Source of the DNA: Escherichia phage AV111 | Direction: 5' to 3' (one strand) | Sequence record: OR352941.1 | DNA: 64,000 bases | Shown here: positions 45,456 through 49,255 of the stretch, one piece after another | How positions within the stretch are numbered: position 1 is the first letter of the stretch | How the letters are laid out: each line of letters begins with the position of its first letter | Program-made: the position numbers and the translations under genes | The notes under the pieces: model-generated | What the model was told of the DNA's origin: nothing | The model's input: the letters and a program-made list of their open reading frames with translations, nothing else | Database searches by the model: none

Positions 45456-45761
45456 TTATTTTCCTCGACATTCTTTAATGAAATTTTCTAGATTGGTAGA
45501 TTCAATAGCTTTTTTACGAGCTTCTGCGTGTTCTTCTTCAGACAATTTACATTTATAATTGACCCAGACGTTATGGTCGAAACTAGTCGTGGCATATAAT
45601 AACAATGCTCCAACGAATAGCAAAAACGGCGATAAGAATACAAAACCAGGAACACCATCCATACTGTAAGCCTTTTGTAATACTGCAACAGAAAGAGTTG
45701 CGTAAAAAGGTGATGCAAGTATTGTTAAAAGACCAATTCGATTGGTTTCTGTTAATTTCAT
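45456..45761 (-). CDS. membrane protein, 101 aa
   Basis: ORF track. Confidence 0.5.
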   Translation of the reverse strand: MKLTETNRIGLLTILASPFYATLSVAVLQKAYSMDGVPGFVFLSPFLLFVGALLLYATTSFDHNVWVNYKCKLSEEEHAEARKKAIESTNLENFIKECRGK

Positions 45762-45831: not shown

Positions 45832-46788
45832 TTATTTGAAAGGTTTTACCATATGGAAATTTTGTTTGAAACGTTTGACGTAATCGTCATGTCCTAAGCT
45901 TTGGTACATACTTACTACTTTGCTGTAGTTTTCCCAGGCGTATTCACGGAACCAACCGGAGGTGATGCTTGTGCAGACTTTTTCCAATGCCATTATGAAA
46001 CTGGCTTCAGGGTTAATTTCAAAGTTATTAGGAATCTGAGAACGTTCTAATGCTAGTACACATGATTCTTCATATACACCGGCCAATTTGACCATTTCTG
46101 GTAATGATTCGAACTTCTCGCGTGAGGTCATGACTTCAGAACCATCTTTCATGTAAAATGTATACGCTGGACGGTCAGTTAGTGCAATGGCTTCATGGAT
46201 AGTATCATGGTCATATGTATAGATGTCATCTTTAAAGAACGCACTTTTAGAAGTGTCAAGAACTGGGTGAGCATAATTCAAGGTTTCTTTCTGGCGTTTC
46301 AGCATAATTTCAGTAAGTTCATCGTTCAGTGTAACACCTTTACCACGAAGATACTGAATATGGTTCATAGTCTTTAAAAAGAATGGATTATTTTTCTTGA
46401 AACGATGAGACATCTTAATTGCAAGACATATCTCAGGAGTTGCCCAGTAAAACCCGTTCAAACGGTCTTTAGTCAAATTTTTCTTGGCGTATTTTAAAAG
46501 GTCATAAGAAGACGTGAAATCTTCAGGAGTGAGTTCACCGACTAATTCACGGACATTAGTGATTGCCGGAACAATATATGCTTCAAAATGAGTTTCGCGT
46601 CCATTATGGAAGCATTTGAAAACTTGGACATCAGGGTTATCTTGGTGAACATATACACCCATCATTTGATTTTTGAATGCATTCCAAGAACATTGGTCCG
46701 CAATAAAGTCCCAATCACTATTTTTAATAGCGCTAGAATCAATAAGACCGTGATAGTGAAGTGCACGAGAACCAATAACTAACATCAT
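45832..46788 (-). CDS. hypothetical protein, 318 aa
   Basis: ORF track. Confidence 0.55.
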   Translation of the reverse strand: MMLVIGSRALHYHGLIDSSAIKNSDWDFIADQCSWNAFKNQMMGVYVHQDNPDVQVFKCFHNGRETHFEAYIVPAITNVRELVGELTPEDFTSSYDLLKYAKKNLTKDRLNGFYWATPEICLAIKMSHRFKKNNPFFLKTMNHIQYLRGKGVTLNDELTEIMLKRQKETLNYAHPVLDTSKSAFFKDDIYTYDHDTIHEAIALTDRPAYTFYMKDGSEVMTSREKFESLPEMVKLAGVYEESCVLALERSQIPNNFEINPEASFIMALEKVCTSITSGWFREYAWENYSKVVSMYQSLGHDDYVKRFKQNFHMVKPFK

Positions 46789-46816: not shown

Positions 46817-47068
46817 TTAAATTTCACGACATGCGATATTATATTCATCCCAGAGGTCATCATGTGAAGCCTCTACCAATGGAACGATTGTACCGTTTAT
46901 GTCTTCATTATAAGGGCAAATTGTACAGTGCGCATCTTCGAATCGGATGCCTTTGTGTTCAGATTTTTTATAACGCATATCGAATATCTTTGCAAACTTT
47001 TCACGAGTAATGGTTTTAGCAACTACTTTGGTTCCGATACTTTCGTAATAAATCATTGTGGACTCCAT
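46817..47068 (-). CDS. hypothetical protein, 83 aa
   Basis: ORF track; start codon immediately downstream of promoter copy. Confidence 0.5.
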   Translation of the reverse strand: MESTMIYYESIGTKVVAKTITREKFAKIFDMRYKKSEHKGIRFEDAHCTICPYNEDINGTIVPLVEASHDDLWDEYNIACREI

Positions 47069-47084
47069 TTGTTTTGATAGGACT

Positions 47085-47114
47085 ACTATAACATAGCCCT
47101 ATCTTGTTGTAAAC
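47085..47114 (-). promoter_or_regulatory. early promoter copy (GTTTAC-18-TATAGT) in palindrome
   Basis: rc GTTTACAACAAGATAGGGCTATGTTATAGTAGTCCTATC. Confidence 0.6.
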
Positions 47115-47118
47115 TGTT

Positions 47119-47316
47119 TTAGCAAGAATAACTAGATGATACCCAGCCTTGAACAGTGATACTATTGTGGGATAATGAGATCGCGTCCTGGAGATTCAGA
47201 CCTGCGTTATCTTCAATCCATAATGTAACTTCTTCGCGTTCTTCTGTTGCAATTTGGAACAGGTTTTCCAGAGCAGCTACTGCCGTACGTACAGCACAAT
47301 CTAATTCACGAGACAT
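47119..47316 (-). CDS. small protein, paralog family member (C-terminal GWVSSSYSC)
   Basis: Shares C-terminal GWV[AS]SS..C with the next two ORFs. Confidence 0.5.
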   Translation of the reverse strand: MSRELDCAVRTAVAALENLFQIATEEREEVTLWIEDNAGLNLQDAISLSHNSITVQGWVSSSYSC

Positions 47317-47325
47317 ATGGTTTCC

Positions 47326-47598
47326 TTAGCAAGTGTGAGAAGATGCGACCCAGCCGCCATCTTCAAGGCTCAGGTTGTAGTCGTATTGGTAAACGTCAGC
47401 CCATTCAGCCTGGCCGTTTTTTGTACAACGTTCAAGATCGGCTTTAAGATGTCCGGGTGAATGATAGGTTCCACCCATACCATAAGCTGGATACAAGTTG
47501 AACGTTGTGTTTTGTTTATCAGCAATTTCTTTGGCAGCCTCAATAGCTGCATAGATTTTTGCTACAGCTTCAGCCAGTTCGGTTTGTTCTTTAGACAT
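47326..47598 (-). CDS. small protein, paralog family member (C-terminal GGWVASSHTC)
   Basis: Tandem paralog. Confidence 0.55.
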   Translation of the reverse strand: MSKEQTELAEAVAKIYAAIEAAKEIADKQNTTFNLYPAYGMGGTYHSPGHLKADLERCTKNGQAEWADVYQYDYNLSLEDGGWVASSHTC

Positions 47599-47607
47599 AA
47601 TGATTCC

Positions 47608-47913
47608 TTAGCACAACGCAGAAGACGAAACCCAAGCACCTTCAGTAATAACGTAACCATTACCTTCACGCTTAACATCGCCACCATTATTTTCAATTTC
47701 ATCTTTCATCCACTGGGATACGATTTCACCCTTAGGATAATAAGTACGGCCGCTACCATAATCACCTACAGAAAATGATACGGCATATTGGTCTGCGATC
47801 TTTGTTGCTTCTTCTTCGATACGTTCAGCTTGATTCAGAAGTTTATAAATTGCATCTGAAGCGGATTTGGCATCATTAAACTCTGGTACTTTAATTTCAA
47901 TAATCTTACTCAT
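47608..47913 (-). CDS. small protein, paralog family member (C-terminal GAWVSSSALC)
   Basis: Tandem paralog. Confidence 0.55.
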   Translation of the reverse strand: MSKIIEIKVPEFNDAKSASDAIYKLLNQAERIEEEATKIADQYAVSFSVGDYGSGRTYYPKGEIVSQWMKDEIENNGGDVKREGNGYVITEGAWVSSSALC

Positions 47914-48269
47914 TTTCTACATTCCTTAATAAAGTTTTCGATTGTTTCATTTTCACGTTTAGCTAGAAGTTCATTATAACTAATCATTTGAGAAGCGTAA
48001 ATATTTTTATTTTTCTTGTTATGGTTTATAAAATCGTAGTAAAAATAGACTACGGTACAAAAGGATGCGATGGATGCAAAGGCTTGGGTATACCGTAAGT
48101 CCTGCCATTGGTCTGTGAATCCACCAGTGTTCCCTATAAATCCTAACACAACGCCGTCAATAAGAAATCCAACTAATCCAAAGGCAAATCCCATGCCAAT
48201 ACTCATAATAAAAATTAGAATGTTCTCACCAAGAGAAGGCCATACGGTTAAGAGTTGAGGCTTTTGCAT
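47910..48269 (-). CDS. membrane protein, 119 aa
   Basis: ORF track. Confidence 0.5.
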   Translation of the reverse strand: MQKPQLLTVWPSLGENILIFIMSIGMGFAFGLVGFLIDGVVLGFIGNTGGFTDQWQDLRYTQAFASIASFCTVVYFYYDFINHNKKNKNIYASQMISYNELLAKRENETIENFIKECRK

Positions 48270-48673
48270 CTTATTTCCTTAACGAATTCCATAGCTTCTT
48301 CATATTCATACTTTTTAACAGCTTCATCATACTGAGCTTTGGCTTTTGCGCACTGAACTTTCCATTCACGAACTCGAGCTCTGTGATGACGGCCTTGGTA
48401 CCAATATCCCACCCAGTTAATAGGCATTAATAAAAATGGCACAATAAACGGCCCGGCTATAACAAGTAAAAACACTGCATCAGACGATATAACTTCACTA
48501 GAATCTAAAACAGCTCCTATAATCATAAAGATTAAAAATGCTAAAGCTAAAATAGGGCCAAATAGTACTTCGTTTGGGATTAATTTACGTTTGTATTCGT
48601 ATGCCCAGGGCTTACTTGGCATGTATAGGGTTGGCTTTGACATATTCTCTACATTCCATAATAAATTGCTCAA
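48248..48673 (-). CDS. membrane protein, 141 aa
   Basis: ORF track. Confidence 0.5.
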   Translation of the reverse strand: MSNLLWNVENMSKPTLYMPSKPWAYEYKRKLIPNEVLFGPILALAFLIFMIIGAVLDSSEVISSDAVFLLVIAGPFIVPFLLMPINWVGYWYQGRHHRARVREWKVQCAKAKAQYDEAVKKYEYEEAMEFVKEIRCKSLNS

Positions 48674-49214
48674 GGATTAAATTGTTAGTGAAATTAGGAC
48701 TAACAACCATAGTTTCATAAAGCGCGTCAATAGCACTTAAAGCATCAACTCTTTTAAGCAAAGGCTTGCCTTCATACATAGTTTCAGAATCGATGATTAA
48801 CGTAAAGTAATATTTTTTATTATCGACTAGAACTTCTGTATCGATATAAAACATATTAGACCTCAGAAGCTTATCTCTAAAACCATAATAATCTTCTGAA
48901 CGTTCACTGATATATTCCAATTCGGTGTTTAAACAACAAACAGACCACGTAGGAGCAACGAAATCAGTGAATCTAATATCATGGTCTGCAACTAGTTTAG
49001 CAATAGCTCCGATATCATGAATCATAATACCTGGGGCTAATAAAGATTTTCTGCTATGGCTAGCCGTTTTCTCGGTGGTCTCATAAGAAGACGACCAGTA
49101 CCATTTACGTCCGGTTGCAACATATCGTAATGAATCAACTAAAGACGTAGGTGGATTTACCTTATCTCGGAACTCTTCGAACATTGAGTCAATATCATTA
49201 TTTTGGTTTCGCAT
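48612..49214 (-). CDS. hypothetical protein (~200 aa)
   Basis: ORF track 48612..49235; internal MRNQNNDID start after terminator. Confidence 0.5.
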   Translation of the reverse strand: MRNQNNDIDSMFEEFRDKVNPPTSLVDSLRYVATGRKWYWSSSYETTEKTASHSRKSLLAPGIMIHDIGAIAKLVADHDIRFTDFVAPTWSVCCLNTELEYISERSEDYYGFRDKLLRSNMFYIDTEVLVDNKKYYFTLIIDSETMYEGKPLLKRVDALSAIDALYETMVVSPNFTNNLILEQFIMECREYVKANPIHAK

Positions 49215-49231
49215 GTTAACTCCTTTATTAT

Positions 49232-49255
49232 CCAAAAGGAGGACCGGAGTCCTCC
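49232..49255 (-). terminator. rho-independent terminator (GGAGGAC-TCCG-GTCCTCC + TTTTGG)
   Basis: Hairpin just downstream of the stop of 49264..49872. Confidence 0.6.

Follow-up and report, generated by a model that had tools for sequence, protein, structure and literature searches.

We report that three consecutive small open reading frames (ORFs) of Escherichia phage AV111 (sequence record OR352941.1), lying at positions 47,119 to 47,913 of the 64,000-nucleotide (nt) stretch which was analyzed as a whole and is referred to as the window, are real, anciently duplicated genes and true paralogues. The three are members of a large family, confined to phages, of small and strongly acidic cytoplasmic proteins whose common tail takes the form W-x-[S/A/P]-S-S-x-x-Cys-COOH, and the genes of this family stand beside a gene for a protein with an N-terminal DUF7277 and a C-terminal DUF7275 domain, hereafter the partner. 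That the two gene families form a conserved module in large virulent phages can be regarded as firmly established. The sequences themselves were already known, having been catalogued as hypothetical proteins in PHROGs and under RB69 ORF numbers; new is the recognition of a phage-only family with a frozen Cys-terminal signature, without fold relatives and tightly linked to a probable nucleotidyltransferase. The terminal-Cys signature and the link to DUF7277-DUF7275 are recorded in no annotation or paper that we found, and a literature search on the trio and on the PHROG and DUF families returned nothing relevant. The window phage is a Mosigvirus, i.e., an RB69-like coliphage of the T4 type.

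The original prediction, made from the sequence alone, had described ORFs of 65, 90, and 101 amino acids (aa) with a shared MSK start, a central YG.G.TY block and an almost identical C-terminal tail. ORF listing confirmed the coordinates of all three on the minus strand, as for every feature located below: paralogue A of 101 aa (47608-47913; the intact form of RB69ORF139c), paralogue B of 90 aa (47326-47598; RB69ORF137c) and paralogue C of 65 aa (47119-47316; RB69ORF136c). The proteins end in GAWVSSSALC, GGWVASSHTC, and QGWVSSSYSC, respectively, so that the similarity of the tails was correctly seen and can be written as W-V-[S/A]-S-S-x-x-C; its eight codons occupy 47611-47634 in A (W-V-S-S-S-A-L-C, with the stop codon at 47608-47610), 47329-47352 in B (W-V-A-S-S-H-T-C) and 47122-47145 in C (W-V-S-S-S-Y-S-C). 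The Cys had been placed two residues before the stop; it is in fact the last residue, and the stop codon follows immediately. The MSK start is found in two of the three proteins, the 65-aa protein beginning with MSR. The central block is likewise present in the two longer proteins, as Y-G-S-G-R-T-Y-Y in A (residues 52-59; 47737-47760) and as Y-G-M-G-G-T-Y in B (residues 39-45; 47464-47484), and is absent from the 65-aa protein, which is a shortened member that has kept the N-terminal helix and the tail.

Chance similarity between short low-complexity sequences had been named as the result that would overturn the prediction, and the data exclude it. In a six-frame translation of the whole window the tail motif occurs three times, always at the ends of the trio ORFs, whereas from amino-acid composition one would expect about 1e-4 ORF ends of this kind and 0.01 occurrences at any position. 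The paralogy that had been proposed was borne out by BLASTP, which aligned the 90-aa and 101-aa proteins over 73 residues (E = 9e-7), and by hhalign, in which the profile built from orthologues of the 65-aa protein matched that of the family along its entire length (E = 2.5e-6, probability 89%). A family hidden Markov model (HMM) recovered the 101-aa, 90-aa, and 65-aa proteins with E-values of 5e-22, 5.6e-24, and 0.028, and among the PHROGs the first two matched phrog_899 (E = 1.3e-22 and 5.3e-19) and the third phrog_4882 (E = 8e-37). That the ORFs might match by chance, or might not be genes at all, could be argued from the 65-aa protein, which is weak in that HMM search and which aligns with either paralogue in pairwise BLASTP only over the tail (E = 1e-3); against this stand the excess of motif-bearing ORF ends, the profile-profile alignment, hundreds of homologues, ratios of nonsynonymous to synonymous substitution (dN/dS) of 0.1-0.4 and coupled ribosome-binding sites, and we consider the possibility negligible. 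The codons of the tail differ among the copies (GGT GCT TGG GTT TCG TCT TCT in A, GGC GGC TGG GTC GCA TCT TCT in B, CAA GGC TGG GTA TCA TCT AGT in C), which means that the tail is conserved as protein and rules out a DNA-level repeat or recombination cassette.

Among 1.84 billion cluster representatives, a profile search returned 579 proteins at E<=1e-3, 61 of them at E<=1e-10. The matching proteins are mostly 70-140 aa long and the match extends to the last residue. Tail statistics were taken from the 146 top new representatives: the final residue is Cys in 136, and Cys is followed by a single residue in eight more. Among the 136 proteins that end in Cys, Trp at -7 and Ser at -4 occur without exception, and Ser at -3 is found in all except three (133/136). 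A [YWF]-G-x-G block is present in 137 of the 146 representatives, a single Cys in 90, and the mean net charge is -7. The family consensus runs from a helix (...EAExIADExGxxFxF) through YGMGGTYYP and a variable acidic stretch with Trp to G-x-W-x-S-S-S-x-x-C; within the block, in the numbering of paralogue A, G53 and G55 are invariant and Y52 and Y58 nearly so. Three elements define the family as judged from these alignments, namely a predicted amphipathic N-terminal helix, a YGxGxTYY hairpin which is lost in short members, and the invariant tail. In an AlphaFold2 model of the 101-aa protein (predicted local distance difference test, pLDDT, 89.6) a long helix at residues 15-43 is followed by a small beta sheet, with residues 56-59 of the YGxGxTYY hairpin modelled as a strand. 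Between one and five small genes accompany a single partner gene.

The motif had been proposed for a search of other T4-like genomes; it was found there and also far outside them. The family is seen in T4-like phages of Escherichia, Klebsiella, Enterobacter, Aeromonas, and Acinetobacter, and further in rV5-like phages, Pseudomonas syringae phages, jumbo phages and Myxococcus phage Mx1, and everywhere the clusters of small proteins bear the name “hypothetical protein.” An automated “Ig-like domain” label on some 65-aa entries is regarded as spurious. A DNA pattern back-translated from YGMGGTYY was found in 24 viral contigs of IMG/VR, while the same pattern gave two matches in 185,579 species genomes; neither of these bacterial matches is a true member, hence the description of the family as phage-only. 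Neither the trio nor ten divergent family members significantly matched a family in Pfam, NCBIfam or PADLOC, the neighbouring genes gave none beyond the two DUFs of the partner, and a sequence search of the PDB with the small-family profile gave helix-bias or chance matches only.

Each gene of the trio forms, by tblastn, a separate orthologue series in many T4-like genera, and the 101/90/65 set is conserved in groups that include Dhakavirus, Marfavirus and Karamvirus-type phages. In Dhakavirus JS98 the three genes keep their order and are joined by a fourth member, and Klebsiella phage F48 has five members of 100, 93, 84, 78, and 65 aa. This distribution places the triplication before the separation of Dhakavirus- and F48-type genera, and tandem diversification, which the prediction had invoked, is not a recent event. 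Comparison of all three genes with their JS98 and F48 orthologues gave dN/dS values of 0.12-0.40, with dS saturated, which indicates that these are real genes under purifying selection. The 65-aa subfamily is far better conserved in the orthologue alignment than the two longer paralogues: its first 21 residues, MSRELDCA.RTA.AALENLFQ, are near-invariant across genera and include a second invariant Cys at position 7. Such conservation suggests a specific binding surface peculiar to the 65-aa protein. In the BASEL collection, phage Bas47 encodes the 101-aa protein. It should be noted that some deposited copies are truncated: RB69ORF139c has 71 aa and ends in ...SQWYEK, and versions of the 101-aa and 90-aa genes with 75 aa and 65 aa and out-of-frame ends occur in mar005P1 and in a metagenome. 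These copies are either frameshift sequencing errors or natural pseudogenes, and the truncation of ORF139c is why RB69 has four ORF numbers (136c-139c) for three genes.

The placement of the trio in an accessory region agrees with the prediction. In T4, e.2 abuts e.3 directly, at the point where the window phage carries about 3.4 kb of extra genes (RB69ORF133c to 139c), and T4 has no member of the family: a scan of its whole genome gave tk.1 as the best match (E = 0.005), through the helix only and without the tail. A homologue of the partner is absent from T4 as well, so that neither gene family can be approached through T4 genetics.

The linkage between the two gene families was assessed on 24 IMG/VR loci that had been seeded by the small-protein motif only. 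Seventeen have about 900 nt or more of sequence downstream, and in all of them (17/17) the small genes have a partner homologue next to them, encoded on the same strand; in the other seven the sequence ends too soon downstream to be informative. The informative loci include jumbo-phage contigs and contigs unrelated to T4. The partner is usually immediately downstream of the small gene or genes, with gaps from -85 (overlap) to 843 nt as measured between stop-to-stop reading frames. A reverse search from the partner, by tblastn across 733 phage records, led to the same arrangement. Acinetobacter phage AM101 has two members by the family HMM (E<=1e-3) and a third ORF ending in WYNSSESC, all upstream of the partner; Phapecoctavirus BI-EHEC has two members by HMM and between them an ORF ending in WHSSSC, again all upstream; Myxococcus phage Mx1 has one member 21 nt upstream; and Stenotrophomonas phage Mendera has two members by HMM and a possible third, all downstream. 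Adjacency was also evident from tblastn coordinates in Aeromonas phages CC2 and avDM7, Pseudomonas phage PN09 and Serratia phage 4S. In the window the partner is a gene of 318 aa (45832-46788; RB69ORF134c), about 330 nt downstream of the 65-aa gene when annotated ORFs are compared.

These results bear on the terminal Cys, which according to the prediction could serve for modification or for the binding of metal. Metal binding inside a single chain appears unlikely, since most members have a single Cys and there is no invariant His/Cys cluster; a modification or docking role is more plausible given that the DUF7277-DUF7275 gene is an obligatory neighbour. A related idea casts the small proteins as carriers of thiol or sulfur, with a persulfide or another group on the terminal Cys, or as metal binders in an oligomer. 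The invariance of the C-terminal thiol and the additional Cys at position 7 of the 65-aa subfamily would fit such carriers; the sequence and fold, however, resemble neither DsrC/TusE nor any metalloprotein, conserved His or Cys residues that could pair with the mostly solitary Cys are missing, and no sulfurtransferase is encoded nearby. We hold this explanation to be very improbable.

The partner matches DUF7277 (E = 1.3e-27) and DUF7275 (E = 3.3e-78) in Pfam. Its N-terminal domain carries the pattern h-h-h-h-G-S...(13-17)...D-x-D-h-h, with a later E-x-E strand in most homologues, and G6-S7 and D25-x-D27 are invariant in 13-14 diverse homologues. The element G-[GS]...D-x-D is the hallmark of Pol-beta-type nucleotidyltransferases, and the full signature, h-G-[GS] followed some 10-20 residues later by h-[DE]-h-[DE]-h, is present in the partner. 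The C-terminal domain is very strongly conserved, with the blocks KMSHRYLKNSPHFLKTM, YDHDSIHEA, VLALERSQIP, and KVCTSITSGWFREYAWENY. By hhalign the partner motif could be superposed on the G-G...D-x-D motif in CCA-adding enzymes (E = 0.031 with E. coli Cca as the single comparison sequence), one of 13 partner homologues gave a weak Pfam match to DUF6036 (E = 0.25), and the depositors of two Acinetobacter phages had named the gene “putative nucleotidyltransferase”; one member of the partner cluster is named “DUF7275 domain-containing protein.” On the motifs we consider it reasonably likely that the partner is a nucleotidyltransferase-like enzyme, and at this level of resemblance it is probably of the Pol-beta type. 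A redundant CCA-adding enzyme is an unlikely identity, as full-length hhalign against E. coli Cca gave nothing and the C-terminal domain is unrelated; canonical Cca genes are present in some of the same large-phage groups. In roseophage DSS3_VP1 genes for RNA ligase 2 and a phosphoesterase are followed, three genes further downstream, by a partner homologue, a context which is possibly a hint that the substrate of the partner family is an RNA end.

The interpretation that we favor, tentatively and in the knowledge that it may well be wrong, is that the small proteins act through the partner enzyme as its clients, substrates or adaptor subunits. We infer both the physical interaction and any chemistry at the tail from the linkage and the conservation described above. 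The small proteins would be in physical partnership with the DUF7277-DUF7275 enzyme; docking, common to all copies, would rely on the helix and the tail, the only parts still present in the 65-aa member; the enzyme would bind, and possibly modify, the Ser-Ser...Cys tail, e.g., through O- or S-nucleotidylylation; and the acidic middle parts, which vary among the one to five paralogues, would confer on each copy a target or specificity of its own. The small proteins appear to depend on the partner, and not vice versa. A more specific version, which we regard as rather doubtful, is a phage system of post-translational modification in which the enzyme uses a nucleotide to modify the Ser-Ser-x-x-Cys tail of acidic effectors. 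The reaction could be Ser-O- or Cys-S-nucleotidylylation or, as the other option, activation of Ser followed by elimination and attack of the terminal thiol, which would produce a lanthionine-like C-terminal ring. The modified tail would then make the effectors active on host targets, with the paralogues serving as a set of warheads supplied by a single enzyme.

Several observations weigh against this proposal and should be considered together. In the AlphaFold2 model of the 101-aa protein the tail forms the last beta strand and a short helical turn and is not a free arm. The spacing between Ser-Ser and Cys varies in divergent paralogues (WHPSSC, WLSSNC, WYSSSMQNC), which argues against a rigid chemistry of the tail. 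Roseophage DSS3_VP1 and mycobacteriophage WXIN have a partner homologue with no detectable small-protein neighbour, which implies that the enzyme is not strictly in need of the small proteins. The assignment of the partner is itself affected: neither the partner nor profiles of its N-terminal domain matched a nucleotidyltransferase in Pfam or in the PDB, where their profiles gave helix-bias or chance matches only, hhalign against a profile of eight Cca heads reached E = 7e-4 over 35 columns at a probability of 26%, and the single-sequence AlphaFold2 model of the partner (pLDDT 38) is unusable. Conserved synteny alone can mean co-regulation as well. Finally, in this Mosigvirus the trio and the partner are separated by a hairpin with a promoter-like site and by an unrelated 83-aa gene, and they need not be parts of one transcript.

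The same observations can be read differently, the small proteins being stand-alone binders for host takeover or anti-defence, i.e., acidic decoys or nucleic-acid mimics that block host proteins, with the tail as a structural or target-binding element and the partner as a gene which merely shares the accessory cassette. A net charge of -6 to -7 within 65-101 residues is what such proteins would be expected to show, and the absence of the block from T4, the restriction of the family to phages and its variable copy number point in the same direction, as do the early-gene direction of transcription, the early/middle promoter-like sites nearby and the occurrence of the partner without small proteins. 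However, neither fold comparison nor sequence search revealed a likeness to a known anti-defence protein or DNA mimic. Rapid evolution is usual for simple decoys, but the eight terminal positions of this family are near-frozen across very distant phages, and hitch-hiking in a cassette is a poor explanation for linkage at all 17 informative loci in phage groups that share little else. We see stand-alone binding as an explanation of limited likelihood. A near-frozen eight-residue tail, the lack of a solved fold relative and an obligatory enzyme-like neighbour together speak for a dedicated mechanism and not for a fast-evolving decoy.

The gene order also bears on the idea that the small proteins are antitoxin-like regulators which inhibit or time the nucleotidyltransferase-like enzyme, with the tail occupying its active site or the proteins mimicking its nucleic-acid substrate; they would then be comparable to the small partners in MenT/AbiEii or MNT-HEPN systems. 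In nearly all lineages the enzyme gene directly follows the small genes, which encode acidic proteins and were never found without the enzyme gene, itself sometimes standing alone; all of this would suit such regulators. The presence of one to five paralogues per enzyme gene is nevertheless unusual for a one-to-one inhibitor, the small genes are downstream in Mendera, and Pfam and PADLOC showed no similarity to known antitoxins, so that we judge regulation of this kind to be improbable.

Within the window, the trio sits in a block transcribed leftward, with the lysozyme e and nudE genes on one side and tRNA genes on the other, and the 1.5 kb surrounding it are 98-99% identical to many Escherichia and Shigella phages. 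The ATG of paralogue A overlaps the stop codon of the upstream e.3-like gene (47910-47913). Paralogues A and B are separated by a 9-nt spacer (47599-47607) which together with the stop codon reads TAAGGAATCATT and is followed by ATG, and B and C by another of 9 nt (47317-47325; TAAGGAAACCAT, then ATG). The stop codons of A and B fall within the Shine-Dalgarno sequence of the following gene (TGC TAA GGA...ATG), a classic arrangement which points to translational coupling of the trio. A promoter-like site, TTTACG-17-TATAAT, lies inside the upstream e.3-like gene (47973-48001); it is a consensus match only and is a possible start of the trio transcript. A T4-type middle promoter is annotated within the e.3-like gene of a near-identical phage. 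Directly downstream of paralogue C is a second promoter-like site (47076-47113), sigma-70-like, with TTTACA-17-TATAGT and an upstream TG. It overlaps an 11-bp hairpin (-16 kcal/mol, z = -3.2), and at the matching site of the near-identical phage SA79RD a terminator is annotated. This element, which separates the trio from the two genes that follow, presumably resembles the promoter-early stem-loop elements of T4-type phages. The first of these two genes is the 83-aa ORF (46817-47068; RB69ORF135c, phrog_3723), which has a C-T-I-C pair and a third Cys close to the C terminus; its homologues were seen in T4-like loci only (two loci), and for this reason we place it outside the widely conserved module.

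A second paralogous set is found in the block that contains the trio, composed of the predicted membrane proteins ORF133c, e.3, e.4, e.5, and e.2, which share a C-terminal F-[IV]-x-E-[CI]-R (45456-45761, 47910-48269, 48248-48673, and 48612-49235, together with the e.2-like gene). Their tails read NFIKECRGK, NFIKECRK, EFVKEIRCK, QFIMECREY, and RFITECRNLR. These F-I-x-E-C-R proteins were ruled out as a third component of the module, being found in T4-like loci only. The label “sulfurtransferase” given to the e.4-like membrane protein in several genomes (JK45_00138 in MK962757.1, corresponding to window positions 48248-48673) is likely an annotation artefact, since the protein has no Pfam match.

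Large virulent phages of Gram-negative bacteria commonly carry the family, and several of the groups concerned include isolates that are candidates for therapy. If the enzyme does act on the tail, the module would add an enzyme-client system of a new kind to phage takeover biology, and two Pfam DUFs and two PHROGs would acquire functions.

With regard to known systems, the closest records of the trio itself are phrog_899 and phrog_4882, where the proteins are already catalogued as phage hypothetical proteins and where PHROGs splits off the 65-aa branch. A precursor of a ribosomally synthesized and post-translationally modified peptide (RiPP) of the lanthipeptide or AviCys type was rejected: the likeness to that class is limited to the S-x-x-C-end spacing, the trio proteins are folded domains of 65-101 aa, the distance from Ser to Cys is variable in divergent members, and Pfam on the neighbouring genes gave DUF7275, DUF7277 and sub-threshold matches, none of them Lan-type. 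Ocr, ArdA, and Arn are, like the proteins described here, small, strongly acidic phage proteins from accessory regions. They differ in having neither an invariant terminal motif nor an obligatory enzyme neighbour, there is no structural or sequence similarity to them, and no such similarity in sequence or fold was found to the wider set of known inhibitors (Ocr, ArdA, Arn, anti-CRISPRs). In DsrC and TusE the active Cys is adjacent to the C terminus; the likeness to them is that of a small protein with a strictly conserved Cys in or beside the terminal position, and it does not extend to the DsrC fold. In CitD/CitX of citrate lyase and MdcC/MdcG of malonate decarboxylase, which we take to consist of a small acidic carrier of about 100 aa with a conserved Ser and a dedicated nucleotidyl-type transferase, there is a lead and nothing more; no homology was detected, no metabolic partner genes lie nearby in the window phage, and in the window proteins the conserved Ser residues sit at the very end of the chain, along with a terminal Cys. 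In type VII toxin-antitoxin systems a nucleotidyltransferase modifies its own protein partner. MenT/MenA, AbiEii/AbiEi, and MntA/HepT likewise pair a gene for a G-[SG]...D-x-D enzyme with an adjacent small partner gene. As a system the module comes closest to these pairs and to the carrier-transferase pairs such as CitD/CitX, a resemblance confined to architecture and head motif. The module proteins gave no PADLOC or Pfam match to the MenAT, AbiE or MNT-HEPN families and show no similarity to them in sequence or fold; unlike these systems, the module resides in virulent phages and not in bacterial genomes, it contains up to five paralogues of the small gene, and it has the terminal-Cys signature.

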